Position numbers and translations under genes: made by a program. A DNA stretch of 64,000 nucleotides from Rhodospirillales bacterium (GTDB lineage: Bacteria > Pseudomonadota > Alphaproteobacteria > CACIAM-22H2). Positions 6,751-26,057 of this stretch are shown here, piece after piece. The notes beneath the pieces were generated by a model. That model was not told the DNA's origin. It worked only from the letters and a program-made list of their open reading frames with translations, and did no database searches. Within the stretch, counting starts at the first letter, position 1. The number at the start of each line of letters is the position of its first letter. Location of the stretch: the NCBI GenBank assembly GCA_947445225.1, contig CANFCX010000001.1, positions 24,189 through 88,188 of the forward strand. Reading direction: 5' to 3'.

Positions 6751-6817
6751 TGGGAGAAATCAAACCGGAGCCGACCGCGCCTTGATCCGTGCGCCTACTA
6801 GGCGTACATAACTTCTC

Positions 6818-7602: not shown

Positions 7603-7614
7603 GGCGGTCCCACG

Positions 7615-7651: not shown

Positions 7652-7659
7652 TGCGGGCG

Positions 7660-7892
7660 TGATGCGGCACTTTTCGGGAGGTTCCGGCCGGTCGGCTTTT
7701 GTGGCATATTGCAATGCACTTTGCCAATTTGCATGGGTATTTTCCGCAAAATGCGATGCACAATGAAAGTGTGCTCTGCGGCATAAAATTATCTTATTGA
7801 AAAACAACAATAATTTAGGACGCCGACTTTCGTATAGTTTGGCACGGCGCATGCAGCCCTACTTTAGTAGCGTGCGACAAGGAGTATTTCTA
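7660..7892 (+). promoter_or_regulatory. AT-rich putative promoter/operator region upstream of LuxR-type regulator; contains two TGCRATGCAC boxes
   Basis: GC drops sharply; TTGCAATGCAC and AATGCGATGCAC about 40 nt apart; AGGAG SD 8 nt upstream of ATG at 7893. Confidence 0.3.
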
Positions 7893-8525
7893 ATGAAGCT
7901 TTTGCTCATCCACCCGGCGACCGCGACCCGCTCGGTTCTGTCCCATGCCCTCGGCAAGATGTGGCGCGAGGCCGTGGTGGCCGAACGCGATACCGCCGGG
8001 CCGGCGCCGGGCGTCGACGAGCCGGGCATGATCGTCGTCGATGGTGCGTTGTGCGCTGACATGAACGCCGCCGATCTTCGCCTGTTGTGCCGCGCAGCCG
8101 CAGCCGCGCCCGTGGTCTTGCTCTCGACTTTCGTGGATTTGCCCGGCGTCATCGCCGCTTTCGACCGCGGCATGGCCGGCGTGGTGCCCAAATCCCTTTC
8201 GGTGGCCGCCATGGTTCAGGCGCTGCGCCTGATCGCCTCGGGTGAACGTTTCGTCCCGGCCTCCGTGCTCGCCGCCGTGCGCCCGATGGGCGGTGACCGC
8301 GGCGGGGAGACGCCCACGCTCGATCGCCTCACCCCGCGCGAACGCGAGGTACTCGGCCTGCTGCTCGAAGGCGGCTCGAACAAGGCCATCGGCCGCACCC
8401 TCAGCCTGACCGAAGCCACGGTCAAAGCCTACATGATGACGTTGTGCCGGAAACTCGGCGCGCGCAATCGCGCCCACGCCGTCCGCATCGCCGTCCAAAA
8501 CGGCTTCGCCGCCGCCGCGGCCTGA
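7893..8525 (+). CDS. LuxR/FixJ-family transcriptional regulator with atypical receiver-like N-domain
   Basis: C-terminal LuxR HTH (LTPREREVLGLLLEGGSNKAIGRTLSLTEATVKAYMMTLCRKLGARNRAHAV); N-terminus MKLLLIHPATATRSV lacks canonical acidic pocket. Confidence 0.8.
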   Translation: MKLLLIHPATATRSVLSHALGKMWREAVVAERDTAGPAPGVDEPGMIVVDGALCADMNAADLRLLCRAAAAAPVVLLSTFVDLPGVIAAFDRGMAGVVPKSLSVAAMVQALRLIASGERFVPASVLAAVRPMGGDRGGETPTLDRLTPREREVLGLLLEGGSNKAIGRTLSLTEATVKAYMMTLCRKLGARNRAHAVRIAVQNGFAAAAA

Positions 8526-8632
8526 AGTCGCCGGGGCCGCGAGCCCCACACACAAATTTCCCGTTAGGGCGCGGAGGCACCTCATACCCATCGAGCGATC
8601 GAGGGTGTGAGGGCCTCCCCCCTCGCCTCCAC
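8526..8632. repeat. GC-rich intergenic element between convergent luxR-like gene and priA
   Basis: GAGGGTGTGAGGGCCTCCCCCCTCGCCTCC hairpin-rich segment, related to GGGGGCC family. Confidence 0.4.
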
Positions 8633-10888: not shown

Positions 10889-10976
10889 GGGCTAGACTCT
10901 GCGAAGCGGGGGCGGTTTTCCCCGTCCCCTTATAACGCCGGACCGGCGTGAGCGGCACGATGATCGAGCAAGGACG

Positions 10977-11702
10977 ATGGCCAGCGATCCCGAAAAGATA
11001 ACCAAGGCCCCGACCGCCGTGGACATGGCCGCCGCCGATGTCGCGGTCTATCTGCGCCGGCACCCGGATTTCCTGGACAAAAACCCCGAGATTCTGGCCG
11101 CGATGCTGCCGCCCACGCGGCGCGACGGCGACGGTGTGGTCGATTTCCAGCGCGTCATGGTCGAAAAGCTGCGCGCCGAGGTCGATCGACTGCGTTCGGC
11201 CGAATACGAGCTGGTCTCGCTCGGCCGCAGCAACATGCACCATCAGGGCCGCGTCCATGCCGCCGCGCTCGCGCTGCTGGGCTCCACCACGCTCGAACAC
11301 CTGATCGAACTTATCGGCACCGATCTCGCCGTCGACCTGGACGTGGACGCCGCCACCTTGTGTTTTGAGGCGCCGCCCAATGCCGGCCCCGACGGCGTTG
11401 CCTGCCGGGGCCTGCGCCTGGTCCCGCGCGGCGCGGTCGAACGCCTGCTCGATGGCGGCAAATCCATTGTCCTGCTCGCAGACGAAACCGGCGACAGGGA
11501 TTTGTTCGGCGAGGCCGCCAGCCTGGTCCGTTCGCAGGCCCTGATCCGCATCGAACCGCGGAGGGGCGCACCCTTCGGCATCCTGGCGCTGGGCAGCCGA
11601 CAGCCCGAAAAATTCCACCCCGGCCAGGGAACCGAGCTGCTCGCCTTCCTCGGCCGCGTCGCCGAGCATTGCATCCGGTCATGGTTGGACCGCGCGACCT
11701 GA
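10977..11702 (+). CDS. DUF484-family protein (commonly upstream of xerC)
   Basis: 241 aa; VAVYLRRHPDFLDKNPEIL motif; 3' end overlaps xerC. Confidence 0.75.
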   Translation: MASDPEKITKAPTAVDMAAADVAVYLRRHPDFLDKNPEILAAMLPPTRRDGDGVVDFQRVMVEKLRAEVDRLRSAEYELVSLGRSNMHHQGRVHAAALALLGSTTLEHLIELIGTDLAVDLDVDAATLCFEAPPNAGPDGVACRGLRLVPRGAVERLLDGGKSIVLLADETGDRDLFGEAASLVRSQALIRIEPRRGAPFGILALGSRQPEKFHPGQGTELLAFLGRVAEHCIRSWLDRAT

Positions 11703-12646
11703 GCGAATTCCTTCCCAACCCCGAAACCGCGGACGCGGTCGCCGGCTGGCTCGAATGGCTGGCGACGGAACGCCGCGCCTCCCGCCACACACTGGCCGCC
11801 TATCGCCACGACCTGCTCGCCTTCCTCGGCTTCATGGGTGGACATCTGGGCAGCGCCCCGACCCCGGCCGATCTGGCGCTTCTCCGCACCGGCGATTTCC
11901 GCGCCTTCCTCGCCCGCCGCGCCGGCAACGGCCTGACCGCCGCAACCAATGCCCGCGCGCTGTCGGTCCTGCGTTCGTTTTTTCGCTGGCTCGACCGCAA
12001 CGGCCGCGGGAAATGCGCCGGCCTCGCTGGCCTGCGTTCACCCAAGCTGCCGCGATCGGTGCCGCGCCCGCTGACCGTTGACGACGCACGCAACGCGGTC
12101 GATCAGGTCGGCGATCTCAGCGACGAACCATGGGTGGGTTTACGCGATACCGCATTGCTTTGCCTGCTCTATGGATGTGGCCTGCGTATCGACGAGGCGT
12201 TGTCGCTGAACCGCCGCGACATCGCGCCCCTGCTCCAGGGCAGCGACAGCCTGATCGTGCTCGGCAAGGGCCGCAAGCAGCGCATGGTCCCGGTTCTGCC
12301 CGCCGTGCGTGAGGCGCTGGCCGCCTATCTCGCTGTCTGCCCCCACGCCGCGGGCGTCACCGCGCCAGTGTTCTTCGGCATGCGCGGGAAACGCCTGCAC
12401 GCCGGCATCGTGCAGAAACGCGTGCGGGAGCTGCGCGGCCTCATCGGCTTGCCCGACCGGGCGACACCGCACGCACTCCGCCACAGCTTCGCCACCCATC
12501 TGCTCGCCGCCGGCGGCGATCTGCGCGCCATTCAGGAATTGCTCGGCCACGCCTCGCTGTCGACGACCCAGCGCTACACCGAAATCGACGAAACCCAATT
12601 GCTCGCCGTGTACGATAAGGCGCATCCGCGGGCCCGTCGGGCTTAG
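11669..12646 (+). CDS. xerC: Tyrosine recombinase XerC
   Basis: 325 aa; C-terminal LRHSFATHLLAAGGDLRAIQELLGHASLSTTQRYTEID catalytic region; exact start (11669 vs 11681) uncertain. Confidence 0.9.
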   Translation: MHPVMVGPRDLSEFLPNPETADAVAGWLEWLATERRASRHTLAAYRHDLLAFLGFMGGHLGSAPTPADLALLRTGDFRAFLARRAGNGLTAATNARALSVLRSFFRWLDRNGRGKCAGLAGLRSPKLPRSVPRPLTVDDARNAVDQVGDLSDEPWVGLRDTALLCLLYGCGLRIDEALSLNRRDIAPLLQGSDSLIVLGKGRKQRMVPVLPAVREALAAYLAVCPHAAGVTAPVFFGMRGKRLHAGIVQKRVRELRGLIGLPDRATPHALRHSFATHLLAAGGDLRAIQELLGHASLSTTQRYTEIDETQLLAVYDKAHPRARRA

Positions 12647-12845: not shown

Positions 12846-15800
12846 CTAATTCCCCTGCGCGCGCTGGCCCGGCGGCGTCGCGGCGCGCGGACCGAGGGTT
12901 GCCGGCGCGGGGATGAAATCGCGGAACAGGATTTCGTCGGTGACGGTCCACGGTTGGCCGGCGGGATTGAGATAGAAGCGCCGCATTTCTTCCAGGTTGA
13001 ACGGGCGCGAGCCGATGCGGCCGAGAACGGCGATTTGACCGCCGGTTTCATCCACGCCGCGGTCGCGGTCCAGCCCCTTGGACAGGGACAGGGCCGGCCA
13101 TGAGGTCGGCGCCCAGGCGATCAGCTCGGGTTTGGGCTCGGGGCTGAAGCCGTAGAAATTCGGCTGTTTGTCGGGCGCGGTTAGGTGGACGACCTTGAGC
13201 CCGTTCACGCCGTCGGCGACATAGGCGTAAGCGGTGGCGTTGGTGGTGCCGACGATCACGTCGTGCGCGTCGTTGATCCGGCCTTCGGCGTTGTACATCA
13301 TGTACATGAAGGGCTTTTCGGGATTTTCGACGTCGACGATCGCCAGCCCCTGTTTTTTCGCGCCGACATAGGCATAGGTGCGGGCGACATAGACGCGCTG
13401 CGGATCGTCCATCGGCACGGACGCACCCTCGACCAGGCGCGGTTTGTCGGGATGGGTTACGTCCACGACCTTGAGCCCGGTGCGGTCGGTCACGAACAGA
13501 TAGCGGAATTGCAGGGCAGAGGCGCGCGCGTCGTCGAGCTTCACAACCGCCTCCAGCTTGGGCTTCAGCGGATTGTCCATGTTGAGCACAACGATGCCGG
13601 CATCGGCGGCGACGTAGAAATAATACCCGGCGATGGTCAGGTGGCGTGCGCCCTTGAGGATGTTGTTTTCGTTCCAGGTGACCGCGCGCGTCAGGAAATT
13701 GTTGCGCGGCTCGCCATCGGCCAGCGTGTTGACGTCGGTCGCGATCAAGCCTTCTTCGGAGTCGGTGATGAAGGCGTAGTTGTAGATCGGGTGGAAGGGC
13801 TGCTCCTGATTGGTCACGCGCATCAGGTCGCCCTTGTTGCGGTCGGGATGGATGGGCTGGCTGGTGGGCAACACGACGCAGGTCGCGTTTTTCGAGGCGA
13901 TATGCGTGTCTTGGCCGAACAGGGAGAACGGCGCGCTGATGATGCGCTGCGACACGCTTTTGTTGGCGATGCTGGCGGTGTCATAGACACGCATCCCGCC
14001 CTTGCCTTCGGCGACAAACAGATATTCGCCGCGCAGTTGGAGGCACGACGCCGGGCCGCCGGCGGAATGGGTGAAGGCTCCGAAAGCCGCCGAGTTGGGC
14101 AGCCGCCGGCCGCGCGCTTCGTGTTCGGCGTAAAAATCGGGGTAGGCGTATTTGTGCAGATAACTGCCGATGACCGCCTGCGGCTCTTCGATTTCGGTCA
14201 CCTGCACGGCTTCGATACCGCCGGCGCCGCCGACCCAGGCGTTGTAGCCGACGAAATTGATGAAGTTGGTCCCTTGCAGCAGAAGCTGGGCCATGATCGC
14301 GTTGTTGTCGTTGGCTTGCGACAAATGGCAATCGGTGCAGGTCTTGGTCTCGGTCTTGCGCTCCGTATGCGGATAATGCGGGGCGAAGGCCTGGCTCGAA
14401 TAACCCGATGCGGCGATCGGCGGCTGCTGGATATAGATGCGGTCGCGGTTGATGTTCTGCGACGAAAGCACCAGCGCCGAGGTCGAGCGAATCGGCGCGA
14501 TGATGCCGTTGCGAACCGGCCCGTGGCGGCCGAGCTGGAAGATTTCGTCGCGGGCGACCTGCGGGTTGTACGTGGCGAAGTTGCGGCTTTCGGTGTCTTC
14601 GTAGTGGTGCCGCGGCGTCTTGCGATTGGCCTGGATCGGCAGATGGCAGCCGCCGCAACTGGTCGACCACGACAAATGGCAGGTGAAACACGCCATCTCG
14701 TCGTCGGGATGGGCGAGGTTTTCCTCCCCGATGCCGGGGCCCCATTTCATCGACAGATCCTTGGACATCAGCTTCGCCCGCGCCGCCTTGGCGTTGTATT
14801 GCGGGCTGCTGGGATCGACGCTGTCCTTGACCAGGCTCATTTCCCATTCCAGGCCCGGCCACACCGACGAACGCTGAAACAGCTTGTTGTCGCGCCATTC
14901 GAACCGGGGACGGCCGTCGCTAAGGCGCTTCAAGGCCAAATCGCGCCCGCCCGGCGGCGCCGCCGGGCCGCTGGTGAGCAGCGTCGGATACGCCCTCGCC
15001 GTGCCGTGGCAATCGGCGCATTGGATTTCGATGGCCGCGGCGACCTCGCCGACGATATGGCCGTTGTTGTGTGCGTCCTGCGAGAAATGGCAATCGACGC
15101 ATTGCATGCCGACGTCGACATGGATCGACGACATGTGGACGGCCTTGCTGAATTTGTCCTTGTCGTCATTGGCGACTTGTTTGCCCGCCGCATCCAGCAG
15201 ATTGCCCTTGCGGTCGCGCTTGAAGATGGCGCGGAAGTTCCAGCCATGGCCGTGATAATCGGCGAATTGCGTGTCCTTGAGCGTCGGGTTGAGTTCCGCC
15301 ACCTTCCTGAGGAATTCGGCGTCGCCCCATTTGCCGCGGATGGCGGCTTCTTCGGGGTTGCGCATCAGGATGGCGTGTTCTTCCTCGGTGGTCGGATATT
15401 TCTGCTTCGCCGGCCACATCGCCTGGGCATCGGATTCATAGTCCCACATCGTGAAGCCGAGCATCGAGTTGAGGAAGATGTTCGGCTGATGCATGTGGCA
15501 GATCATGCATTGGCTGGTCGGGATGGCGTTGGTGAATTCGTGTTTGATCGGGTGCCCGGATTCACCCTTGCGGATGGTGGGATCGGCGGTCTGGGTCGTG
15601 CCGGTGCTGCCGAATTTGGCGTAGGGCCCGGAATGGCGGGGGTCGCGGTCGTTGGCGTAAACGACGTGGCAGGACGAACAGCCGGAATGGCGGAAATCGC
15701 CAGGCTGATCGTTGGTGCCCATCATCCACAAAAAGGGATCGTTCAGGCGTGTCTTGGTGATGTTGATCGCGGGCACGGCGATGCGCAAACCGGTGGCGGG

Positions 15801-16793
15801 CCCGCGGTTGGATTGCCGGATGTCGGGTCGTCCCGGCTCTTCCAGCCGCTGCAAAGCGCCGAGCGAATTGGGCAAGCCGATTTCGGGGAATTGGGTGCCG
15901 ATGTTGCGGCCGCCGCGCTCGAAAATGCGGAAGATGTCCCCCGGGGGGATGACCTCCCAGGCGGGCAGCGGCACCAGCTCGGGCAGGATGCCGCGTTTTT
16001 TCATCGCCTCGGTGGGCGCGACCGGAGCCTTCAGCGAGGCCGGCTGCCCATCGCGGGTATAGCCTTCGCCCAGGATGTAATTCTTGAACGGCAGGATTCC
16101 GTTGTTGTAGGAGGCGCCGCCCCACAACATCGCGCCGGTCGCCATCAGGCTGCGTTCGACCGCCTGAATGGTAAGCATGTGGCAGGCGCCGCAGGCCTCG
16201 CGCGCCACGCGCAGATCGCCGGGGTTGATGAAGCGCACATATTCCGGCGCTTCCTTGATGATCAGGGTGTAGGTCCGTTCCTGATTGGCGCTCGACGGGT
16301 AATGCCAGGTTTCGGGAAAACGCGGCAACACATGGGCGCCGTCCATCGCCGCCCGGTAAGCGGGCTCGTAGACCGGGGCGTGATGTTCTTCGGCATGGGC
16401 GGATTCGGTCGGCTTGATGACGATATGGGCGCCGGGCTTATAGCCGGCGAGCGGGTCCGGTTCATGGCTCGTGTCGGGGGCGTGCGCGGCCGCCTGGTCG
16501 CCGCCGGGCCCATGGCTGCCGGCCGGACGAACCACGGTGGGGTTGCCCCCGTGGCAATCGGCGCAGCCGATATTGAGGGCCGAGTTCTGATGCATGTTGG
16601 GTTGGTCGGTCGCGGTATGGCAGGTCAGACAGCCCGCGCTTTTGGCGTCGGCTTGGGCCTTGGTCTGCCCGGCCGGAGCGGGCGGCGTGAACGCGTATTT
16701 GATGTCACGCGGCTTTTCACCCTCGGCGGCAAAAACCGCGACGGCGACGCCGGAAGCCAACAGGATGCCACAGAATATCCGCCACCCGCGCAT
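12846..16793 (-). CDS. Secreted decahaem c-type cytochrome fused to C-terminal LVIVD-repeat beta-propeller (1315 aa)
   Basis: Signal peptide; ten CxxCH motifs (CLTCH, CADCH, CGACH, CSSCH, CMICH, CVDCH, CADCH, CFTCH, CGGCH, CTDCH) in first ~830 aa; C-terminal repeats LKVVDVTHPDKP / LAIVDVENPEKP / LKVVHLTAPDKQ typical of LVIVD repeats. Confidence 0.85.
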   Translation of the reverse strand: MRGWRIFCGILLASGVAVAVFAAEGEKPRDIKYAFTPPAPAGQTKAQADAKSAGCLTCHTATDQPNMHQNSALNIGCADCHGGNPTVVRPAGSHGPGGDQAAAHAPDTSHEPDPLAGYKPGAHIVIKPTESAHAEEHHAPVYEPAYRAAMDGAHVLPRFPETWHYPSSANQERTYTLIIKEAPEYVRFINPGDLRVAREACGACHMLTIQAVERSLMATGAMLWGGASYNNGILPFKNYILGEGYTRDGQPASLKAPVAPTEAMKKRGILPELVPLPAWEVIPPGDIFRIFERGGRNIGTQFPEIGLPNSLGALQRLEEPGRPDIRQSNRGPATGLRIAVPAINITKTRLNDPFLWMMGTNDQPGDFRHSGCSSCHVVYANDRDPRHSGPYAKFGSTGTTQTADPTIRKGESGHPIKHEFTNAIPTSQCMICHMHQPNIFLNSMLGFTMWDYESDAQAMWPAKQKYPTTEEEHAILMRNPEEAAIRGKWGDAEFLRKVAELNPTLKDTQFADYHGHGWNFRAIFKRDRKGNLLDAAGKQVANDDKDKFSKAVHMSSIHVDVGMQCVDCHFSQDAHNNGHIVGEVAAAIEIQCADCHGTARAYPTLLTSGPAAPPGGRDLALKRLSDGRPRFEWRDNKLFQRSSVWPGLEWEMSLVKDSVDPSSPQYNAKAARAKLMSKDLSMKWGPGIGEENLAHPDDEMACFTCHLSWSTSCGGCHLPIQANRKTPRHHYEDTESRNFATYNPQVARDEIFQLGRHGPVRNGIIAPIRSTSALVLSSQNINRDRIYIQQPPIAASGYSSQAFAPHYPHTERKTETKTCTDCHLSQANDNNAIMAQLLLQGTNFINFVGYNAWVGGAGGIEAVQVTEIEEPQAVIGSYLHKYAYPDFYAEHEARGRRLPNSAAFGAFTHSAGGPASCLQLRGEYLFVAEGKGGMRVYDTASIANKSVSQRIISAPFSLFGQDTHIASKNATCVVLPTSQPIHPDRNKGDLMRVTNQEQPFHPIYNYAFITDSEEGLIATDVNTLADGEPRNNFLTRAVTWNENNILKGARHLTIAGYYFYVAADAGIVVLNMDNPLKPKLEAVVKLDDARASALQFRYLFVTDRTGLKVVDVTHPDKPRLVEGASVPMDDPQRVYVARTYAYVGAKKQGLAIVDVENPEKPFMYMMYNAEGRINDAHDVIVGTTNATAYAYVADGVNGLKVVHLTAPDKQPNFYGFSPEPKPELIAWAPTSWPALSLSKGLDRDRGVDETGGQIAVLGRIGSRPFNLEEMRRFYLNPAGQPWTVTDEILFRDFIPAPATLGPRAATPPGQRAQGN

Positions 16794-16801
16794 CGGCTAC
16801 C

Positions 16802-18688
16802 TCAATAAGTCAGGATCAGATTGGCCAGGACGGAATAAAAGAGGTCCTGGCTGCGGCTGGTTTCGTACAGATCGCGCAGCCCGTCGCTCGGCACCAAGAC
16901 CGCGCCGGACAGCCGGAACACGATGTTCTGCATGAACAGAGGCCGGTAGATCGCGGCGACCGAAAGGTCATAACCGATGTCGTGATGGATGTCGGCCTGG
17001 TTGCGGAGGAATTCGAGCGAGGAGGTATCCATGAATTCCAGCTTGTTGAAATTCGTGGACAGCCGCAGTTCCGGGGTCACGTCCATGTCGGTGCCGAAGC
17101 CGAGCAGCCGGATGCCGGGATTGTTGAAATTGGATTGCCCGATTTCCTTCGACGGGCGCAGCGACGGCAACACGCCGTTGCGGGGCGAAAGGGCGACACC
17201 GCCGCCGCCGATGAAGGGGATCGACTGGCGTATCCAATAGCTGGTGTCGGCGCCGGCGAATTGCGGGTTCTCGAAGATGGCGTCGAAACCCTCTTCCCGG
17301 TTGTCGAAGGGGTCCTTGTCGCCGCTGGCGACCAAAGCGGAGGCGCGCACGCGGATCCAGTCGAAATCGATGGAAGGCTCGATCGCGGCGAAATAGGCGC
17401 GAATGTCCGACTTATCGATTCCGCTGAACTGGTTATGATCGTCGGTGCCAAAGGCGTAATAGGCCGAGCCGGTCAGGTTGAGCCGGCCGAAATGCCCGTC
17501 GCCGTTGAGGCCGAGATAGTGGACATCGTATTTGCGCGGCCGCTGGTCGCCGATCGTGGCCGGGCGCTGCAGGAAGAAGTTCTTGTCGTAGTAGAAATCC
17601 TCGCTCTCGTCGTTGACGTTGTACATATACGTCGCCTGCGAGGTGAAGCCGACCACCGGGAAATCCTGCGCATAGACATTGGCAATATAGATATCGTCCT
17701 TGCGCAGCGGCTGGCCGATGTCGTTGAGGCCGCTATTGGTGTCCTTTTCCAGCCGGCGGAACCAGGCCAGATTGTATTGATAGAGGTTGTTCGAGCGGTT
17801 GCCGAACAGTCGCGCGCCCAACTGAATGTCCTGGAACACGAAGCCGCGGAAATCCGAGGAAAACGGCTGGATGCCGATGCGGATCGAATCGAAATCGTAA
17901 CGGTCCGACACGTTGCGTAGGTGATAGTCGATGAAGCCTTCCTGGAAGGCGATCATGTTGTCGGAGCGCACGGTGCCCTGGTTGGGGTCGGCGAACAGCA
18001 CGCCGCGTTCCTCGACCTCCGCGCGGTTGTATTGAATGACCGGCGTGATGCGGAATTCGTAATCGGGCGGGCGGTAGGCGGTGTCGCCCTTGATCAGCGA
18101 GGCGCTCAAGATCACGGTCTCGACGAACACGTTTTGGTTGGTGTCGCCGAACAGATCGACGGAGTTGGCGCGCCGCGTGGTCGAAATGCCCACCGGAATC
18201 GGCGTGCGCCGCGGCTCGTAGACCGTGTCCGAAATCGCGCTGAGGTTGATGAACCAATCGTCCCACAGCGGGCGGTCGCCTTTGAGCGTGTTCTGGTTGT
18301 ACGGGTCCCACCAGCGTTCGTTGACGCCGATCGCCTCGATCAGGCGCCAGCGATCCGGGATCGGGATGAATTCGCGCGGCAACACCGGCGACGGCGGCGG
18401 CACGGCACCGGGATCGGTGATCGGAGCCACGCGCGGCGGCGCGGGCGGCGGCGCGCCGGGCCGCCGCTGATCCTGGGCGACGATGGGCGCGACGGCGCCG
18501 GGTTGGGGAATTCCGAAATTGCCAGGGCTTCTCCCCGCCGGGGCGAGGAGAGGCGATTCCTCCTTGCCGGCCCAGGCCGGAACGGGAAGGCTCACCGCCG
18601 CCAGGGCCAAAATAAGGGGCAGCGAAGCCAATCCCGAAAGTCCGACCGTCTTTGTCCGCCGGCGCATCCTAGATGACCCCGCACACAT
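16802..18688 (-). CDS. Outer-membrane beta-barrel protein (porin-like, ~620 aa)
   Basis: Signal peptide MRRRTKTVGLSGLASLPLILALAAVSLPVPAWA (ATG at 18667 probably the true start); alternating amphipathic strands; C-terminal ...LANLILTY aromatic terminus typical of OMPs. Confidence 0.7.
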   Translation of the reverse strand: MCAGSSRMRRRTKTVGLSGLASLPLILALAAVSLPVPAWAGKEESPLLAPAGRSPGNFGIPQPGAVAPIVAQDQRRPGAPPPAPPRVAPITDPGAVPPPSPVLPREFIPIPDRWRLIEAIGVNERWWDPYNQNTLKGDRPLWDDWFINLSAISDTVYEPRRTPIPVGISTTRRANSVDLFGDTNQNVFVETVILSASLIKGDTAYRPPDYEFRITPVIQYNRAEVEERGVLFADPNQGTVRSDNMIAFQEGFIDYHLRNVSDRYDFDSIRIGIQPFSSDFRGFVFQDIQLGARLFGNRSNNLYQYNLAWFRRLEKDTNSGLNDIGQPLRKDDIYIANVYAQDFPVVGFTSQATYMYNVNDESEDFYYDKNFFLQRPATIGDQRPRKYDVHYLGLNGDGHFGRLNLTGSAYYAFGTDDHNQFSGIDKSDIRAYFAAIEPSIDFDWIRVRASALVASGDKDPFDNREEGFDAIFENPQFAGADTSYWIRQSIPFIGGGGVALSPRNGVLPSLRPSKEIGQSNFNNPGIRLLGFGTDMDVTPELRLSTNFNKLEFMDTSSLEFLRNQADIHHDIGYDLSVAAIYRPLFMQNIVFRLSGAVLVPSDGLRDLYETSRSQDLFYSVLANLILTY

Positions 18689-20558
18689 TCTGCGCCTTGG
18701 TAATGCCCAGGAAGGGGGTGAACGGGCAACTGACGTAACGCAGCCGAGTGCCGCGCGGGGACAGGTTGTCCGACCGCACGGCCGGGCGCGCGTTGCTCAA
18801 TCCGTTGCCCTTGCCGCCATGATAGAGGCCAAGCGCGGCGATCATGTCGTCCTGGTCGATGCCATCGCCCGAAACGCCGACGCCGCCGACCAACACGCCG
18901 TTGCGGTAGATCGGCACGCCGCCGGCGAATATCTGGATGCCGTTGGCCAGCCGGTTGGACCCGCCGGCCGCGGCGACCGCTGCCAGCCCGGTGCAGCCAG
19001 CGGCGTTGGTGGCGTTGCCGGGGTTGGTCAGGTGATTGGCGATGTCGGTGGAGACGAGGTCGAGCTGCAGCCCGGTGCTGAACGGGCTCCATTGCTGAAA
19101 GGGACGGCTCAACGGCCCCACCGACTGGCCATCGACGCCATCGGGGAAATAGGGGCGCGCGATGTTGCCGATGGCGCGAGCGCTATACGCGATGCCGTCG
19201 GCGAAAGCGGTCGGCCCGATCAAGGACCGTGCCTGGGCAATGTAATCGACGGCCAGCGCCAGCGCGGTGATTTCCGCGCCCGCGGTCGTCCGCGAGAAAA
19301 ACACGGCGGTTCGGCCTTTTTGCAGTGACACGTCGGTGCCGAAGACGGGCGCATCGGGGGTACGCACCAAACCCAGGACCAGGCCATTGGTGTCGACCAC
19401 ACTGATGGTGACCTGGGCGTAGCTGCCCAGCGGGCGCCGGATTTGCGCACGCGCCAGAAGCGCCACATCGAGGGCATGGCGCAGGATGGAGTTGACCTCG
19501 GCGGCGGTCAGCACATTGGCCGCGCCACCCACCACGGTGGCGGCGTCGCCACCGGCGGTCGGCGGAAAACGGTTGGCGCCGGCCGCGTTTTCCAACACGA
19601 AGGCGCGGCCGTTGTTGAAGACGCCGCCCGGATCGGGGATGTAGCCCGAACCCGCCGCGCCGAAAACCTGACCGGCGATGACGGCGGCGTTGGCATAACC
19701 GGCGACCGCGACCAGCGCCCCACCGGCGGGCGGGAAAGCCGGGGCCGAGCTGGGGTTGCTGCGGAAATCGGCCGGCGTGGCGTCCGAATAGCGGAGCGTG
19801 CGACCACCGGCGGTGATGCGGTTGGCGCGAATGTCGATGGGCGCGTCGAAGCCGTTGGTCCCGGCCAGCGCGATGACCTCGTCGGGATCGACGTCGCGAT
19901 TGATGATGTCGAGATCCAGGCTGTAGACACCATCGGAGATGGCGCCGACGCCGCCGACGACCCGGCCGTTCTTGTACAAGGGGAAGCCGCCGGTATCGGC
20001 GGACAACCCGGCAGGCGAACGTTTGGGGCCGCGCGTGGCCACGCCGGGGAATTGCAGGTTCAGGTCCGAACACGGCAATTGGCTGAATTGAACGCCGAAC
20101 AGCGGGCCGCCGGGCTGTTGTTTTTCGCCGACGTTGAAATGTTCCTGGACGATCTGGCTGGCCACCCGGGTGGAAAACGCGTTGCCGGCGGACGACAGAT
20201 AAGCGCCGGTGACCGCCTTGGCGATGGCCAAGAGGGTATCGGTATTGGCGATGGCGGCGCCTTCGAGGCCGGTGGCGACACCGCGCCCGGAACTGACCGT
20301 GATCGTCGTTGCGGCGCCGGTCATGCGGAAGACGCCGAGCACGTTGCCGACGCGATCGACGACGGCGATGGTGGCCAACCGGCCGCGCGCCGTGGCCTCC
20401 GTCACCGCCTGCGAAATCACCACGCCGACATCGGCGACCGTGAGGTTCTGCGCGCGCGCCGGAGCGGCGGACAGGGCGGTAAGACCGGCTAGACCCAGCA
20501 GGACCGCGAGAACCCGCCGCGCGACATAGTTCCCGGTCATGGCGGTCCTCGCGGTCAT
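18669..20558 (-). CDS. Secreted protein with two tandem GlcG/HbpS-like (DUF336, haem-binding/degrading-type) domains
   Basis: Signal peptide; motifs RLATIAVVDRVGNVLGVFRMTGA and QVTISVVDTNGLVLGLVRTPDAPVFGTDVSLQKGRTAVFFS, plus GGVGVSGDGIDQDDMIAALG typical of GlcG family. Confidence 0.7.
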   Translation of the reverse strand: MTARTAMTGNYVARRVLAVLLGLAGLTALSAAPARAQNLTVADVGVVISQAVTEATARGRLATIAVVDRVGNVLGVFRMTGAATTITVSSGRGVATGLEGAAIANTDTLLAIAKAVTGAYLSSAGNAFSTRVASQIVQEHFNVGEKQQPGGPLFGVQFSQLPCSDLNLQFPGVATRGPKRSPAGLSADTGGFPLYKNGRVVGGVGAISDGVYSLDLDIINRDVDPDEVIALAGTNGFDAPIDIRANRITAGGRTLRYSDATPADFRSNPSSAPAFPPAGGALVAVAGYANAAVIAGQVFGAAGSGYIPDPGGVFNNGRAFVLENAAGANRFPPTAGGDAATVVGGAANVLTAAEVNSILRHALDVALLARAQIRRPLGSYAQVTISVVDTNGLVLGLVRTPDAPVFGTDVSLQKGRTAVFFSRTTAGAEITALALAVDYIAQARSLIGPTAFADGIAYSARAIGNIARPYFPDGVDGQSVGPLSRPFQQWSPFSTGLQLDLVSTDIANHLTNPGNATNAAGCTGLAAVAAAGGSNRLANGIQIFAGGVPIYRNGVLVGGVGVSGDGIDQDDMIAALGLYHGGKGNGLSNARPAVRSDNLSPRGTRLRYVSCPFTPFLGITKAQNVCGVI

Positions 20559-21025
20559 TGCGCGATACCCACCCGGAACACGCCGAATTTGAAGCTGTCG
20601 GCCGTGCGATAGGCAACGATCACGTTAAAAGGGAATTCCTGGCCGGTGAGGTCTTCCTTCAACACCTTGAAGACGAGCCGGTTGCCGACGGGCTGGATGC
20701 GATTGTCGATCAGATGGTCGGTGTCGCCGTCCCAGCGCACCCAATAGCCGAGATTGCTGCGCTGCAGCAGCAAATTTCCCCAGGGTTTGGCGATGACATA
20801 GGTGGCGAGCGGCTGATCGCCGTGCAGATCGATTTCGCGGATGATCTCGGCGGCCTCCGGGCGAATGGCGATCGGCGCCAGCATCGCACCTTCAACGCTC
20901 AACGCCTCGCCCCGGCCGGACGCCGGGGCCAGCAACGCCAACGCCATGAAAAAAAAGGTAAATCCAAATCTGGACGGACCGGCTTTCGGTCGTGTTCCAC
21001 TTGGATCGTGCGCCAACAGCGCCAT
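20555..21025 (-). CDS. Small secreted hypothetical protein (~156 aa)
   Basis: In-frame ATG (MALLAHDPSG...) downstream of cytochrome stop; hydrophobic FGFTFFFMALALLAPASG signal-like segment; 4-nt overlap with next gene. Confidence 0.5.
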   Translation of the reverse strand: MALLAHDPSGTRPKAGPSRFGFTFFFMALALLAPASGRGEALSVEGAMLAPIAIRPEAAEIIREIDLHGDQPLATYVIAKPWGNLLLQRSNLGYWVRWDGDTDHLIDNRIQPVGNRLVFKVLKEDLTGQEFPFNVIVAYRTADSFKFGVFRVGIAQ

Positions 21026-21072
21026 CCGGTCATCCCCCATTTTTTTTGCCCGGCCAACAAAGCCGCGCCACT

Positions 21073-22779
21073 TTAACGCGGCGCGCCCGTTTGGCCAACC
21101 CCCGGCGCGCCGCCGACGGCTTGCGGACGCATCGGACCCATGGCCGGCGTGTGGAAGACGTGGCAGGCCACGCAGGTCGACGGCACCAACGTAGTCACTT
21201 CTTCCCCGCCATGGCAGCGGCGGCAATTGGCGATCCCCGGGAGCAGGACCTCGGAACTGGCAACGGATTTCGGCGCGGCGTGGCAATCGACGCAATCGGT
21301 GTTTTTGTGTTTGCTGTGATCGAATTTGCCCTTGGGCATCCAGGTCGCCGCCACGAACACCGGCTTGACCCGGAAATTGGGTCTCTCGTCGAGCCGGGTC
21401 GTCCGTTCGACGAGGTGGCAACTCCCGCAGATGCTCTTGCCGTAGACGATCTCGATGGTCGCATCGGCGCGGCTGCGCGCCCAGGCCAGCGCTTCGGTGC
21501 GCGCCGCTTCCTCGATCGGCGTGCCGGCACGGCGACGCACGGCGGCCGGCGCCGTGGGATCCTCGAAACCGCCTTCGAGTGCGACGCGGCCGTAGAAATC
21601 GTTGAGGACCTTGGCGACTTCGTCGGGTTTGCCATGCGGCACTTCGCGGTCGAGCGCCTGGGCCTCGAACTTCAATTTGTGGCAATCGCGGCAATCGGTC
21701 TCCATGTCAACCGCACGCATGCCCACGCCGCCGGTCTCCGGGCGGTGGCAATCATTGCAGACCATTTTCTGCAAGCCGGTGGGGCCACGCACGCCGGCTG
21801 GCACCAAATGTTTGTCATGCGGGAAGATTAGGTTGGAATTTTCCTTCAGCGCCGGATCACCGATCGCCAACCGCGCCAGGGTCCGCGTTGCCGGGTCGGT
21901 CACCACCGACGGCCGAAATTCGGGGTGATCGCGGCCGAAATCGCTGACGTTGATCAGCTTGGTCGTGGGGATGATCGCGGTCAGCCGCACATGGCAATCG
22001 TCGCACAAGGCTTGCGCCGTCTGGATCGCCGGCTGCCGGCCTTGATGTTCCTTGTGGCAAGACGCGCAGCGAGTCTCTTCCAGTGCCGGCAGTTGCACCG
22101 TCTTCACATCGGCGTGGTGGGCGATGTCGCTGTGGCAGGTAAGGCAGGCCTGGTCCTGGACCATGATGAAGGGCCGCTCGTGGCAGGTCGTGCAATCACT
22201 CGCGAAATATTTGTGCACGCCGGAGATTTCGCCGGATTCCCATGACTTGTCCGCCGCGATCGGCATCGCCGTCATGCTTTTGTGAAGGTCGGGTATGAAA
22301 AAGGCAGCGACCGGAAGGACCAGGAAAAGCAGGAGCACGGTGGCGAACGCGGTCCACGACAATACGCGTTTGCTGAACGCGGCATCACCCAGGCGGGCAT
22401 GGCTGCGCTGCGTTAGTTCGGCGAGATCGTCTCCCAGCGGCTGCACCAATTCGACGGTAACCGCGACGCCATAGCCAGGCGGCGCTTCCACCACATCGAT
22501 CTTGTAGGGACCGACGGCGATCGAATCGCCGGGCCGGACACGACCTGAATTGGCGGCGGCGCCATTGATGGAAAGATCGTTGCTGCCAACCGCGGAGGCG
22601 TAGACCTGGCCCTCGCGCACATGTATTTCGGCGTGGTCGAGCGCGACCCGCGGATCAGGAAGATAGACTTCGTTCTTGGTGCCGCGGCCGATGCGGATGA
22701 ATTCCACGGTGGCGTCTTGGTCGCGCCGGGAGACGCCACGATTGCCGCGCCGAGTCAAATAGCCGACTTGGACAAGCAC
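21073..22779 (-). CDS. FHA domain - transmembrane helix - periplasmic decahaem c-type cytochrome fusion (568 aa)
   Basis: N-terminal FHA (IRIGRGTKNEVYLPDPRVALDHAEIHVREGQVYASAVGSNDLSINGAAANSGRVRPGDSIAVGPYKI), TM VLSWTAFATVLLLFLVLPVAAFFIP, then ten CxxCH motifs (CTTCH, CLTCH, CASCH, CDDCH, CNDCH, CRDCH, CGSCH, CVDCH, CRRCH, CVACH); GTG start with GGGAG SD. Confidence 0.85.
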   Translation of the reverse strand: MLVQVGYLTRRGNRGVSRRDQDATVEFIRIGRGTKNEVYLPDPRVALDHAEIHVREGQVYASAVGSNDLSINGAAANSGRVRPGDSIAVGPYKIDVVEAPPGYGVAVTVELVQPLGDDLAELTQRSHARLGDAAFSKRVLSWTAFATVLLLFLVLPVAAFFIPDLHKSMTAMPIAADKSWESGEISGVHKYFASDCTTCHERPFIMVQDQACLTCHSDIAHHADVKTVQLPALEETRCASCHKEHQGRQPAIQTAQALCDDCHVRLTAIIPTTKLINVSDFGRDHPEFRPSVVTDPATRTLARLAIGDPALKENSNLIFPHDKHLVPAGVRGPTGLQKMVCNDCHRPETGGVGMRAVDMETDCRDCHKLKFEAQALDREVPHGKPDEVAKVLNDFYGRVALEGGFEDPTAPAAVRRRAGTPIEEAARTEALAWARSRADATIEIVYGKSICGSCHLVERTTRLDERPNFRVKPVFVAATWMPKGKFDHSKHKNTDCVDCHAAPKSVASSEVLLPGIANCRRCHGGEEVTTLVPSTCVACHVFHTPAMGPMRPQAVGGAPGVGQTGAPR

Positions 22780-22803: not shown

Positions 22804-23661
22804 TTACCAGTAGAAGAAAACGGAGAAAACGTGGGTCGTCAGCGCCGCCAAAAGGCCGACCGACAACGGCACGTGGAACATCAGCCAAATTTCCAGGAAA
22901 GCCCGGTATTGCACGTCGCGCCGCGCGCGACCGACAAGGTCGCTCTTGCGGCTCAACAAGGTCAGCAATTTACGCACGGCGACGGCGTCTTCCACCGAGA
23001 CCTTGGTCGCGAGTTGTTTGATCCTGGCCAGCGCGCGCGAAGTCGGGCAATTGGGATCGCGGCCGGAAAGCTGACGCCACACCGACCCGCCGATCTGAGT
23101 ATTGCGTCCGGAATCGAGCACCGCCCGCGTGATCTCGTCGGGCAGTCCCATGGAAACTTCGCGGCTTTCGGTATCGAGCGCGGCGATGCGCGTGAAAATC
23201 TCGGTCAGTGTCAGCCCGCCGCGGTTCTGGGTCATCAAGGCGGGATACCGTTGATAGAAAAACACGCCGAACACGCCCGACAGGATGACCAGCATCATCA
23301 AGGTGTAGGCAAGCGTATGCACGTTCCAGCCGAACTGGAACCCGGTGTGCAGCGTGGCCACGACGATCAGCGCGAGGCCGAGATAGACATGCGCCGATAG
23401 CCAGCCCTGAAGTTTCGTCGGACCCTGGTTGTACCGCCGTTTACGTACGCCGAACCACATCAGCCACAGGATCAAGCCCGCGCCGATCGTGCCCAACACA
23501 TAACCGAGCCACGTGCCGCCATTGGGCGGGTCCAACGGGCTGTGGGCGCCGTAGACGATCGCAGCCGCCAGCGCGCCCAGGACGGCGACCTTCAAATACC
23601 GGAAGTTGCGGTAGACGAGATAGGATTGATGCATCGTCTTTTGGCTGTTGGCCGACCTCAA
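22804..23661 (-). CDS. Polytopic membrane protein with conserved intramembrane histidines (candidate b-type haem/quinol-interacting subunit)
   Basis: 285 aa, five predicted TM helices each with His (SAHVYLG, TLHTGF, NVHTLAY, MFHVPLS, TTHVFSV); TTG start overlapping upstream stop (TTGA). Confidence 0.55.
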   Translation of the reverse strand: MRSANSQKTMHQSYLVYRNFRYLKVAVLGALAAAIVYGAHSPLDPPNGGTWLGYVLGTIGAGLILWLMWFGVRKRRYNQGPTKLQGWLSAHVYLGLALIVVATLHTGFQFGWNVHTLAYTLMMLVILSGVFGVFFYQRYPALMTQNRGGLTLTEIFTRIAALDTESREVSMGLPDEITRAVLDSGRNTQIGGSVWRQLSGRDPNCPTSRALARIKQLATKVSVEDAVAVRKLLTLLSRKSDLVGRARRDVQYRAFLEIWLMFHVPLSVGLLAALTTHVFSVFFYW

Positions 23662-26057
23662 AGACCCCGGTTAGACAGCGAGAAGAATTCCTCGGGGCTG
23701 ACACGAATGGCGGCGCCGGTCGGACAGGCCCGCACGCAGGACGGGCCGCCTTCGATGCCTTTGCACATGTCGCATTTCACCGCCATCTTGCGTTTGTTCG
23801 GGTCTTTTTTCTTGCCGTGGGTGGCTTCCCAATCCTCGCCCGGCCCGTGGCCCAGCCCGAACAACATCCAGGCCAGCAAGCCCGGCTTGGCCGGCGGCTC
23901 CGCCGACATGTGAATGACGTGATAAGGACAATTGCGCTCGCAATTGCCGCAACCGATGCATTTTTCGTCGATGAACACTTCACCATTGGGCGAACGGTGG
24001 ATGGCGTCGGCCGGGCAATCGGACATGCAATGCGGGTGTTCGCAATGCCGGCACGAGGTTGGCACATGGATCGAGGCATAGGTCGGGCCGGCTTCGCGAT
24101 CCAGCCGCGACACCCCGTGATGGGTCTCGGCGCAGGCCTTTTCGCAATTGTCGCACCGCACGCACAGCGATTCGTCGATCAACAGAACGTCGGTCGCCTC
24201 GCCCAAACCTTGGTCGAGCAGGAACTGCATCAGATTCGAATGGTCGGGCCGGCCTTCCATGCGGGCGTTTTCGACGAGCCGTGCCTGGAACCGAGATTCG
24301 ACCTCGACGCGCAACTCGGGCGAGCGATCGAGCAGGCCGCGGAAGGCGCCGCCATCGAGTTTGATGGCCTCCGTCGCCACCGCCGCCCGCACCGTGGCGG
24401 TGCGCGGGCTCTTGGTCAGCAGCGCCATTTCGCCGACATAATGGCCGGCGGGGACATAGGACAAAACCACGTCGCGGCCGCCCAGGTTGCGCGCCACGGT
24501 CACCGACCCGCTGCGGATCAAATAGACGTTGTCGCCGATATCGCCTTCCTTGATCAGCACGTCGCCGGCGCTGAAGGACTGGATCGTGGCCGTGCGCACG
24601 ACATCGACCAGGTCGCGCTTGGAGACCTGCGGCGCTAGATGCGTCTGCACCTGGCGGATCATGGCGGTTTCGTCGAGCACACGTTTAGCCGCGGCGATCG
24701 AACGGGTCAGCTTGATAACCTGCCGGCGCGGGGTCTCGATCAACACGCAATCGGCGCCCGCCACCACCGTCGCCGTGCGCCGGCGGCCGGAGATCAAACC
24801 CATCTCGCCGAAGAATTCGCCGGTCTTCAGCGTCACCTTGATCGCTGGGTTTTCGGCGCTGACCTGGACATCGACCGACCCCGACAGGATCGAATAGAAG
24901 CTGTCGGAATAATCGTTGCGCTTGAAAACGATCTCGCCCTGTTTGGGCACATGGACGTCGCTGTCGAGCAGGAATTCGCGAAGCTGCAGCTTGGTCAACG
25001 AGGAGAACATCGGCACGCGCTGCTGCACGCCCTCCAGGAACTGCGAGACGGTCACCCCTTGCAGCCCCGTGAGTTTTGCCTCGAGCAGCGGCTCGTCCGC
25101 CGGCTTCACCTCATGCCCGAGGATATATTCGACCACCTCGTAGCCCTGGTTCATGCAGTGTTTGATCAGGGGATAACCGGCGAGCGCGCCGATGATGTAC
25201 AGCCCCTTCACGTTCGATTCGTAGCTGTCGCTGACCCCCGGAACCGAGGCCGGATCGGCGTTGGGGAACACGATGCCGCAGGCCTCGACGAATTTGCGCG
25301 GCGGCAGGGCGCCGATACGGGCGATGACCCGGTGGCACTTGACCACCGCCTCGCCCTCCGGCGTTTTCAGGAAAATGGCGCTGGGATCGGTCTCGACCTT
25401 AATGACCTTGGTATTGAAATAACACTGGATGCGGCCTTCCTTGATGGCCGATTCGATCAGCGCGACGTTGCCCGCCTTGGCGCGCGCGAAATCACCCATG
25501 ACGTTGACGACGATGACCTCGTTTTGGGCGGCCAGCGCGATGGCGTTTTCGAGCCCGGCATCACCGGCGCCGATCACAACGATGGTTTCGTCTTTGTATT
25601 CTTCCGGGTCGTCGAGTTGGTACTGGACGTTGGGGCCGGTTTCGCCGGGTACGCCGAGGGTGCGGATATTGCCCTGCAACCCAATGGCGAGCACGACGGC
25701 ATCGGCGGTGAGCGTTTGTTTGTTGGCGAGCGTGATCGTGAAGATCGCGCCTTCCTTCTTGATGCCCGCGACATCGGCGTTTTGGCGCAGGTTGAATTTC
25801 AACTCGCCGGCGCTTTTGTCCCAGGAACCGAGGATGGTTTCGCGGGCGCCTTCCTTGAATTGAAGATCGCTGCGCAGGGGCAGGACCTCCGGCGTCGCCA
25901 TGACGTGTTTTTTCTTCTGATACTTGTAGATCGTATCGGAAAGATGGGTGGTGCGTTCGAGCAGCACATAAGACGCGCCACGCTTGGCCGCGCGTCCCGC
26001 CGCGCTTAATCCGGCCGGGCCCGATCCGACAATCGCGATCGCATAGTGTTCGGCCAT
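23658..26057 (-). CDS. FAD/NAD(P)-binding oxidoreductase fused to two cNMP-binding domains and a C-terminal 4x[4Fe-4S] ferredoxin domain (799 aa)
   Basis: GSGPAG and GAGDAG dinucleotide folds; two CRP-type cNMP signatures (FGEMGLISGRRRTATVVA; VGEMALLTKSPRTATVRA); four Cys clusters CVRCDNCEKAC, CRHCEHPHCMSDCP, CIGCGNCERNCP, CDMCKG..CVRACP. Confidence 0.85.
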   Translation of the reverse strand: MAEHYAIAIVGSGPAGLSAAGRAAKRGASYVLLERTTHLSDTIYKYQKKKHVMATPEVLPLRSDLQFKEGARETILGSWDKSAGELKFNLRQNADVAGIKKEGAIFTITLANKQTLTADAVVLAIGLQGNIRTLGVPGETGPNVQYQLDDPEEYKDETIVVIGAGDAGLENAIALAAQNEVIVVNVMGDFARAKAGNVALIESAIKEGRIQCYFNTKVIKVETDPSAIFLKTPEGEAVVKCHRVIARIGALPPRKFVEACGIVFPNADPASVPGVSDSYESNVKGLYIIGALAGYPLIKHCMNQGYEVVEYILGHEVKPADEPLLEAKLTGLQGVTVSQFLEGVQQRVPMFSSLTKLQLREFLLDSDVHVPKQGEIVFKRNDYSDSFYSILSGSVDVQVSAENPAIKVTLKTGEFFGEMGLISGRRRTATVVAGADCVLIETPRRQVIKLTRSIAAAKRVLDETAMIRQVQTHLAPQVSKRDLVDVVRTATIQSFSAGDVLIKEGDIGDNVYLIRSGSVTVARNLGGRDVVLSYVPAGHYVGEMALLTKSPRTATVRAAVATEAIKLDGGAFRGLLDRSPELRVEVESRFQARLVENARMEGRPDHSNLMQFLLDQGLGEATDVLLIDESLCVRCDNCEKACAETHHGVSRLDREAGPTYASIHVPTSCRHCEHPHCMSDCPADAIHRSPNGEVFIDEKCIGCGNCERNCPYHVIHMSAEPPAKPGLLAWMLFGLGHGPGEDWEATHGKKKDPNKRKMAVKCDMCKGIEGGPSCVRACPTGAAIRVSPEEFFSLSNRGL

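Follow-up and report, generated by a model that had tools for sequence, protein, structure and literature searches.

A Decahaem Cytochrome–Propeller Fusion Paired with an AlgE-like Outer-Membrane Barrel: A Candidate Terminal Reductase of Proteobacteria

Introduction

The last gene of a seven-gene redox operon in a Rhodospirillales bacterium encodes a 1315-residue protein which, judged from its sequence, is an exported decahaem c-type cytochrome with an LVIVD β-propeller as its C-terminal third. The gene occupies 12846..16793 (-) of a 64,000-nucleotide stretch (assembly GCA_947445225.1, contig CANFCX010000001.1, positions 24,189 to 88,188), referred to here as the window, in whose numbering all coordinates are given. 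It lies beside the gene of an outer-membrane β-barrel, and since barrel and cytochrome are retained together in clades with different feeder genes, the barrel–cytochrome pair is the constant unit of the system, while the feeder genes vary. We favour, with a probability of about 0.45, a reading in which the cytochrome is a terminal reductase docked beneath the outer-membrane channel and fed by an envelope-spanning chain driven by reduced nicotinamide adenine dinucleotide (phosphate), NAD(P)H.

Multihaem cytochromes acting together with outer-membrane proteins are a known route of electron transfer between bacterial cells and their environment, and the characterised examples come mostly from metal-respiring or iron-oxidising specialists. 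The protein family discussed here is large and strongly conserved, occurs mainly in what we take, judging by the genera, to be ordinary aerobic heterotrophs, and is almost entirely without a functional name. It represents an architectural variant among the outer-membrane-associated multihaem redox modules, set apart from the Mtr paradigm by its apparent NAD(P)H source and its AlgE-like partner. Finding the substrate of this cytochrome could explain an environmental redox activity that lacks an enzyme, and the family could define a new class of haem-propeller enzyme.

The Haem Domain

An open reading frame (ORF) of 1315 codons with ten CxxCH motifs had been reported at this position in a reading of the DNA sequence (the original prediction), which gave no strand. 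The ORF is real, starts with ATG and is encoded on the minus strand. A plus-strand reading of the same interval was rejected, being interrupted by stop codons, and so was, as unsupported, a 1207-codon ORF at 13185..16808 (+) that runs antisense to the cytochrome gene; frames of this kind arise easily at about 65% G+C and could mislead gene callers.

The CxxCH motifs are found at residues 55, 77, 201, 372, 429, 565, 592, 702, 713 and 819 and cover about 770 residues, compared with a chance expectation of 0.0085 motifs (mean for the shuffled protein). A search of the protein for the variants CxxCK and Cx3-4CH was negative. All 30 Cys/Cys/His positions of the haem motifs are invariant in an alignment of 93 sequences, and alignments of homologues reveal about 12 additional invariant His residues, an invariant pair of Cys residues in the propeller and long invariant propeller stretches. 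The haem domain (residues 48-830; 14304..16652 (-)) comprises about 780 residues; with some 78 of them to each haem, its haem density is low for a protein serving purely as an electron wire.

The N-terminus (MRGWRIFCGILLASGVAVAVFA/AE) resembles, by eye, a Sec signal with a hydrophobic segment at residues 3-25. A putative Sec-type signal peptide would span residues 1-23 (MRGWRIFCGILLASGVAVAVFAA; 16725..16793 (-)), with cleavage probably near VFA/A. Inspection by eye found no lipobox in the protein or in its close homologues, whose similar N-termini contain no Cys. An alignment gap marks an insertion of about 47 residues after haem 2 (residues ~95-143; 16365..16511 (-)), which is rich in His, Pro and Ala, contains seven His residues and is missing in 18 of the 19 other aligned sequences; a partial equivalent is present only in homologue P0014. 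It may serve as a linker that confers flexibility or as a tail that binds metal.

A comparison with multihaem family models, which had been proposed as a check, gave one Pfam match. A cytochrome c7-type model matches residues ~552-602 above its cut-off, the only Pfam match besides LVIVD to do so; in that region the c3 and c554 models also match, but fall short of their cut-offs. NCBIfam returned nothing near any cut-off, with ExtM, HmcA, DmsE and NrfH far below threshold. The model of ExtM, a cytochrome of a selenite/tellurite operon (NF040943), reaches 56.3 bits of the 800 required, and its match is confined to residues 555-604. Among structures in the PDB, searches by sequence and with a 93-sequence profile retrieved as relatives of the haem domain only a marginal, ActA-like di-haem match (E ~0.1).

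The Propeller

Pfam, a structure model and the repeats themselves concur in placing an LVIVD β-propeller of seven blades at residues ~851-1265 (12999..14243 (-)). With the LVIVD model (PF08309), the target reaches 63.7 bits where 20.2 are required (E = 9.8e-18), in two scored stretches, and homologues are positive as well. Repeats are found at residues 932-946, 1015-1029, 1067-1078, 1107-1118, 1150-1161 and 1199-1210; the first and the last three of these had been quoted previously and are present as described, and the two others are additions. The invariant Cys pair of the propeller, C917 and C972, is not part of a haem motif.

Structural information was obtained by modelling residues 40-1239 of a homologue that is 75% identical to the target (P0010), using a 93-sequence alignment. 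The model has a predicted template modelling score (pTM) of 0.79 and a mean predicted local distance difference test score (pLDDT) of 70.9. For most of the C-terminal 400 residues the confidence exceeds 90, and in the haem domain it is patchy, as expected for a domain modelled without its haems. The strands of the model map onto residues ~851-1265 of the target, and the matches listed by Foldseek against the PDB are all propellers, namely AztD, 1l0q, the surface lids BtuG/BT1954 and WD40 proteins; among the nearest of these structures is 1l0q, the YVTN propeller of an S-layer protein. Because only propellers are among the matches listed and the C-terminal strands are confidently modelled, the LVIVD propeller is confirmed at the level of the predicted structure, the repeats forming a closed propeller of about seven blades.

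Distribution and Conservation of the Family

More than 7800 homologues of the target were found, the best 120 of which are full-length, 65-72% identical and nearly all annotated as “hypothetical protein”. The phylogenetic distribution of the fusion, suggested earlier as a point to examine, extends over 517 species genomes in a scan with one genome per species. Carriers include Alphaproteobacteria (Rhodospirillaceae, Zavarzinia, Geminicoccus, Nisaea), Gammaproteobacteria (Arenicella, Steroidobacter, Dokdonella, Halieaceae, Lysobacterales) and Betaproteobacteria (Burkholderiales, Casimicrobiaceae). Among their sources are the sea, lakes, soil and sludge, and Zavarzinia sp. CC-PAN008, Arenicella sp. 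and Halieaceae GM1-29 are carriers in culture. The partner barrel gene is also present in Nisaea and Oceanibacterium.

An exhaustive search with the haem domain yielded 576 clusters at E < 1e-30. The genuine divergent relatives are 41-48% identical and 1171-1702 residues long, and all of them have kept the LVIVD propeller; the fusion of haem domain and propeller is, hence, old and obligatory. Three seemingly propeller-less relatives (P0353, P0369 and P0296) were rejected as frameshifted gene calls of low identity. Entries of this type are Arg/Ala-rich mistranslations from error-prone assemblies and inflate the apparent diversity of the family; one frameshifted entry continues from the barrel gene into that of the cytochrome.

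No protein of the operon is more conserved than the target, which, propeller included, shows about 65% identity across the three proteobacterial classes. Median identities fall from 65% for the target to 60% for the barrel, 56% for a flavoprotein, 50% for an HbpS-like protein, 48% for a cytochrome b and 36% for an anchored decahaem protein. Such a gradient is typical of a catalytic subunit served by faster-evolving wires, and the high cross-class conservation, as we read it, is more in line with a defined role in catalysis or docking than with a surface that contacts minerals.

The Operon and Its Barrel

The target gene is the last of seven co-directional, tightly spaced genes and is followed by a convergent xerC-like gene. 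The description of it as the terminal gene of its cluster is, thus, correct, and its place at the end of a redox cluster makes the role of “terminal oxidoreductase”, also proposed earlier, a reasonable one. Among the 59 loci with enough upstream flank, which come from Alpha-, Beta- and Gammaproteobacteria, 55 have all six larger operon genes; the gene order is that of the window at 45, and at 10 others, all of betaproteobacterial type, the flavoprotein gene is located downstream. When the flanking ORFs were clustered all against all, no further co-conserved genes emerged, and none for type II secretion or cytochrome maturation.

Directly upstream of the cytochrome gene, in every case, lies the gene of the barrel (16802..18688 (-), a 628-codon ORF with a likely start at M8, position 18667), which was recognised from its structure model and the Foldseek matches. 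The model (pLDDT 81) has 18 long strands, and its best match in the PDB is AlgE (3rbh; E = 3.7e-17, template modelling score 0.61-0.69 when normalised to AlgE), followed by the 18-stranded channels of the Occ/OprD group; MtrB is not among the 50 matches listed. The window's barrel has no match in Pfam, some of its homologues are named “alginate export domain”, and a few carry PF13372. Since the protein contains no CxxCH motif, the barrel itself is predicted to be unable to conduct electrons. It has a Pro-rich N-terminal extension with the conserved motif IPxPDRWR..WDPYNQNxLKGDxP. The most conserved parts are not the strands; they are a loop region at residues ~455-525 (..FENPQFAGADTSYWIRQ..GQSNFNNPG..) and the N-terminal periplasmic motif at residues ~100-140. 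The internal loop and the N-terminal motif are candidate plug, selectivity or docking elements.

These features bear on the idea, contained in the original prediction, of a surface-exposed protein with a mineral-binding domain. That the protein is secreted (with the signal judged by eye), has ten haems and is fused to a propeller is upheld; surface exposure and mineral binding are disfavoured by the 18-stranded AlgE-like barrel, the lack of a lipobox and of a third cytochrome, the lack of co-conserved type II secretion genes and the identity of about 65%. Developed into a full explanation, the idea is that of an MtrC/OmcA-like extracellular terminal reductase, whose propeller binds a mineral or another insoluble acceptor and whose barrel is the porin of a conduit, and this we consider unlikely. 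The invariable adjacency of barrel and cytochrome genes would suit it, and so would the surface proteins among the best propeller matches (S-layer protein 1l0q, BtuG and BT1954), a secretin gene 12 kb away within the window, and two peculiarities of divergent homologues that are taken up below, i.e., lipobox-like signals in two of them (P0259 and P0247) and a poly-c7 N-terminal extension in another; furthermore, the similar ptd operon was proposed to encode a porin–cytochrome complex (bioRxiv 10.1101/2023.11.21.568154).

However, the barrel of the window is 18-stranded, of the AlgE/OprD kind and provided with a conserved internal loop, with no MtrB-type protein among the 50 matches listed, and among the encoded proteins there is no cytochrome to occupy its interior, the sole other c-type cytochrome being anchored in the inner membrane. 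The target and its close homologues have no lipobox, the secretin and type II secretion are not co-conserved (2 of 80 loci), and the MtrC/OmcA and MtrA models are far under their cut-offs. The MtrA/DmsE model (TIGR03508) scores 14.5 bits with the target and 18.7 bits with the 568-residue decahaem protein of the operon, against a cut-off of 192.2; the MtrC/OmcA models (TIGR03507 and PF22113) do not match the target, and with its homologues, where the cut-off is 30 bits, scores of 23-29 bits are obtained in a match restricted to the first three haems. Moreover, a cross-class identity of 63-72% is unlike that of mineral-contacting outer cytochromes, and many carriers are presumably aerobic heterotrophs. 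A surface mineral-binding reductase is, hence, not shown. The 18-stranded AlgE-like barrel, the lack of a third cytochrome and of a lipobox, and the position of the target as the most conserved protein lead us to favour a docked terminal reductase over a mineral reductase at the surface.

The Electron-Transfer Chain

The gene farthest from the target (23658..26057 (-)) encodes a cytoplasmic flavo-iron-sulfur protein of 799 residues, as identified by Pfam, NCBIfam and its PDB relatives. It combines a YpdA/thioredoxin-reductase-like domain for flavin adenine dinucleotide (FAD) and NAD(P)H with two cyclic-nucleotide-monophosphate (cNMP)-binding domains and a HycB/NrfC-like polyferredoxin; relatives in the PDB are Bdr/YpdA, the cNMP-binding domains of PKA-R/PKG, and HycB. 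Neither a signal peptide nor a transmembrane segment was found in this protein. It is followed by a membrane di-haem cytochrome b of 285 residues (22804..23661 (-), likely start ATG 23634), assigned from its invariant His residues and PF01292. These residues form two pairs (His91/His105 and His263/His277), each spaced by 14 residues inside a transmembrane helix, and are invariant in 60 homologues and in a set of 13. The cytochrome b561 model PF01292 is matched by 13 of 13 homologues (best E = 2.1e-9); the Ferric_reduct model (PF01794) reaches 13.2 bits with the cytochrome b against a cut-off of 28, and 3 of the 13 homologues match it weakly. The third component (21073..22779 (-)) is an inner-membrane decahaem protein of 568 residues, recognised by its FHA and cytochrome c7/c3 Pfam matches and the CxxCH count. 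It consists of a cytoplasmic FHA domain (residues 28-97) that resembles OdhI, one transmembrane helix (residues 137-167) and a periplasmic domain with ten CxxCH motifs.

A flavoprotein with NAD(P)H, FAD and polyferredoxin sites and no export signal, a transmembrane di-haem cytochrome b and an anchored decahaem protein together suggest an outward path of electrons. In the mechanism that we favour, electrons would depart from NAD(P)H via the FAD and the Fe-S clusters of the 799-residue protein, and the two b haems would take them over the inner membrane in the manner of NADPH oxidases, ferric reductases and Fre-MsrQ. The anchored decahaem protein would then relay them across the periplasm into the ten-haem chain of the target, which may be docked at the periplasmic face of the barrel, with the propeller as a docking and/or substrate-binding module. 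There it would reduce an oxidised substrate that passes in or out via the barrel; the system would thus act as an outer-membrane terminal reductase, in contrast to the Mtr type, in which a wire is threaded through the barrel. The cNMP-binding and FHA domains might gate this path, which drains NAD(P)H. As to the substrate, our guess, held with low confidence, is an oxidant in solution or a chelated metal in preference to a mineral in solid form.

The periplasmic reductase MsrP is fed by Fre-MsrQ, and the three proteins form a precedent for a two-component chain of the NADPH oxidase (NOX) type. The analogy of the first step to NADPH oxidases, ferric reductases and Fre-MsrQ is borne out in part by the family assignments of the cytochrome b. 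Taken further, the favoured reading leads to a broader proposition, which we rate as unlikely: that many aerobic Alpha-, Beta- and Gammaproteobacteria from soil, freshwater and the sea possess an unrecognised, second-messenger-gated “NADPH-oxidase + twenty c haems” that carries reducing power to the outer membrane, bypassing the quinone pool, and ends in a haem-propeller enzyme and an AlgE-like channel. If true, these organisms would have a so far undescribed ability to reduce an oxidant in the periplasm or outside the cell, which could be a metal chelate, an oxyanion (e.g., iodate) or O2, the last yielding superoxide.

The two remaining genes of the operon encode secreted proteins. One is HbpS/GlcG-like (18669..20558 (-), 629 residues), with tandem domains (PF03928; E = 7.7e-21, two stretches), a signal-like N-terminus and matches in the PDB to the C-domain of PduO, to EfgA/GlcG and to an extracellular haem-binding protein; it is conserved at 66 of 80 loci and also in the divergent clade L081. 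The other (20555..21040 (-)) is a small, weakly conserved protein of about 161 residues from an ATG at 21040, a start that is uncertain; tblastn found matches at 15 of 80 loci.

With FHA and tandem cNMP-binding domains built into electron-transfer proteins, the operon might also be mainly a redox sensor, with the haems responding to redox conditions in the periplasm or outside the cell, these domains relaying the signal to the cytoplasm, and substrate turnover not being its purpose. Relatives of HbpS are involved in redox or formaldehyde sensing, going by molecule names and paper titles, and cyclases and a Ser/Thr kinase adjoin the clusters of divergent clades. Yet twenty c haems, two b haems, FAD and a polyferredoxin exceed the needs of any known sensor, an NAD(P)H-binding flavoprotein suggests catalytic throughput of electrons, and the conserved operon contains no output domain of the DNA-binding, kinase or cyclase type, which makes a primarily sensory function highly improbable.

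Divergent Clades and the Direction of Electron Flow

Divergent genomic contexts were taken from relatives that are about 40-44% identical to the query P0257. Clade L081 has the order 459-residue cytochrome, HbpS-like protein, barrel and decahaem-LVIVD protein, with an adjoining CHASE2 cyclase. In a second clade, the order is CHASE2 cyclase, FecR, a protein with HEAT and cNMP-binding domains, barrel, cytochrome and an amine-oxidase-like flavoprotein, and in the clade of P0257 itself barrel and cytochrome are followed by a Ser/Thr kinase. The barrels of these clades are homologous to that of the window (56%, 29% and 27% identity; E 0 to 3e-42). The N-terminal motif of the barrel is complete in the first two of them, and the third alignment starts inside it, at WWDPY. 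Genes for cyclic-nucleotide or phospho-signalling recur near the pair. CHASE2 cyclases adjoin the divergent clusters L081 and L083.

Several observations weigh against a docked, NAD(P)H-fed reductase. The clade with the 459-residue cytochrome has neither flavoprotein nor cytochrome b nor FHA-decahaem protein, i.e., it lacks the NAD(P)H module. P0257 (locus L084, 2927-7873) carries an N-terminal poly-c7 multihaem extension of about 550 residues, a feature typical of electron-transfer “wires”, and two other divergent relatives have lipobox-like signals (P0259, ..LVIIGC; P0247, ..LLWGC); from these divergent N-termini, localisation or anchoring may differ between clades of the family. Characterised members of PF01292 exchange electrons with quinones, and since the cytochrome b matches this family, quinol could replace or supplement NAD(P)H as the input. 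The haem domain is modelled with low-to-moderate confidence, and no haem protein is among the fold matches listed. To our knowledge, every characterised pair of co-encoded barrel and cytochrome is an extracellular electron-transfer system. Finally, we infer the direction of electron flow from the chemistry of the partner proteins alone.

Haem chains are reversible, and with an inward flow the target would oxidise an external or periplasmic donor (Fe(II), Mn(II), reduced sulfur or humics) at the outer membrane and hand the electrons on to the cell, with the NAD(P)-linked module as a sink or regulator. The exchange of that module in some clades for a single 459-residue cytochrome, possibly a link to the respiratory chain, would be in keeping with such a function, and barrel–cytochrome pairs also take part in iron oxidation (PioAB, MtoAB, Cyc2). 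Against this stand the energetics, the reduction of NAD(P)+ via b and c haems being uphill for most donors, and the lack of any co-conserved partner of the oxidase, cupredoxin or bc1 type; in addition, the barrel is not of the PioB/MtoB type, and the carriers are, as we assume, mostly heterotrophs. We regard inward flow as quite unlikely and retain the docked terminal reductase as the working explanation.

Comparison with Known Systems

The literature examined contains no description of an LVIVD–multihaem fusion, and only one similar description was found, that of the ptdABCDEFG operon of the marine Alphaproteobacteria UBA11136 in a 2024 preprint, which is defined by its domain content and has no known function (bioRxiv 10.1101/2023.11.21.568154). 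Compared by domain content only, both systems have a flavoprotein, a cNMP/4Fe-4S part, a transmembrane protein (ferric-reductase-like in ptd, the cytochrome b in the window), a periplasmic decahaem cytochrome and a porin, and the order of cNMP/Fe-S, transmembrane and decahaem parts is common to both. In the window, however, the FAD/NAD(P) and cNMP/Fe-S parts are fused in the 799-residue protein, and the outer cytochrome has ten haems and a seven-bladed propeller instead of five haems and a β-sandwich. An extra tetrahaem cytochrome is present in ptd, for which an HbpS-like protein and an FHA domain are not mentioned.

With MtrCAB, PioAB and MtoAB, the operon has in common the joint encoding of a multihaem cytochrome and an outer-membrane barrel, haem counts of ten and an electron relay in the periplasm. 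It differs from them in the barrel, which in MtrB has 26 strands and in the window 18 strands of the AlgE-like kind, in the lack of an MtrA-type cytochrome to fill that barrel, and in its apparent input, NAD(P)H via a b-type cytochrome as opposed to a CymA-type quinol dehydrogenase.

A cytoplasmic NAD(P)H flavoprotein together with a membrane protein that has two transmembrane His pairs 14 residues apart recalls NADPH oxidases, ferric reductases and Fre-MsrQ-MsrP. Here the flavoprotein is, in contrast, of the YpdA/thioredoxin reductase type with cNMP-binding domains and a polyferredoxin, the membrane protein fits PF01292 better than Ferric_reduct, and the acceptor is a series of 20 c haems leading to the outer membrane.

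Exported proteins in which haem c is combined with a β-propeller, and which share the high, enzyme-like conservation, are known in NirS (cytochrome cd1), the quinohaemoprotein dehydrogenases and hydrazine synthase. No similarity of sequence or profile to these enzymes exists; the propeller of the target is a seven-bladed one of the LVIVD/YVTN type in which no cofactor motif was recognised, and the haems, ten in number, are far more numerous. For the barrel, AlgE and OprD/Occ are the best structural matches and equally 18-stranded, but the identity is 11-13%, no polysaccharide genes are near the barrel gene, and the Pro-rich extension and the conserved loop at residues ~455-525 set it apart.

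Genomic Surroundings

Downstream of the cluster follow DUF484-xerC, priA and atpHAGD, an arrangement that we take to be alphaproteobacterial, and the operon shows no sign of belonging to a mobile element. These genes occupy window positions 1791-12646 (atpH-A-G-D, priA, DUF484 and the xerC-like recombinase gene); the mechanical ORF caller had started the ORFs of the delta and alpha subunits too far upstream. Nothing resembling a terminator or a promoter was detected downstream of the target gene, and a search of the window with Rfam returned no RNA family and no cobalamin riboswitch at the gathering threshold.

A GspD-like secretin with N0, three Secretin_N and Secretin domains is encoded at 29157-31295 (-). 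Its neighbours, a 625-residue ORF without a family and a gene for a 401-residue protein with a PPC domain, include no other type II secretion gene that could be recognised. A linkage of the target to type II secretion was rejected, as the window's secretin is matched at 2 of 80 loci and no such family is co-conserved.

The region ~32400-54000 is devoted to cobalamin biosynthesis and encodes CobO/BtuR, CobQ, CobD, CbiC, several tetrapyrrole methylases, a CbiG fusion and CobB-like proteins. Within it, about 17 kb from the cluster, lies the gene of a dCache-type sensor joined to an adenylate/guanylate cyclase (42664-44505 (-)); in view of the CHASE2 cyclases beside divergent clusters, the cNMP-binding flavoprotein may have a cyclic-nucleotide link to it. 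A 736-residue protein encoded at 48496-50706 (-) is a fusion of an S-adenosylmethionine-dependent methyltransferase with a D-Ala-D-Ala-ligase-like ATP-grasp domain, which is an unusual combination.

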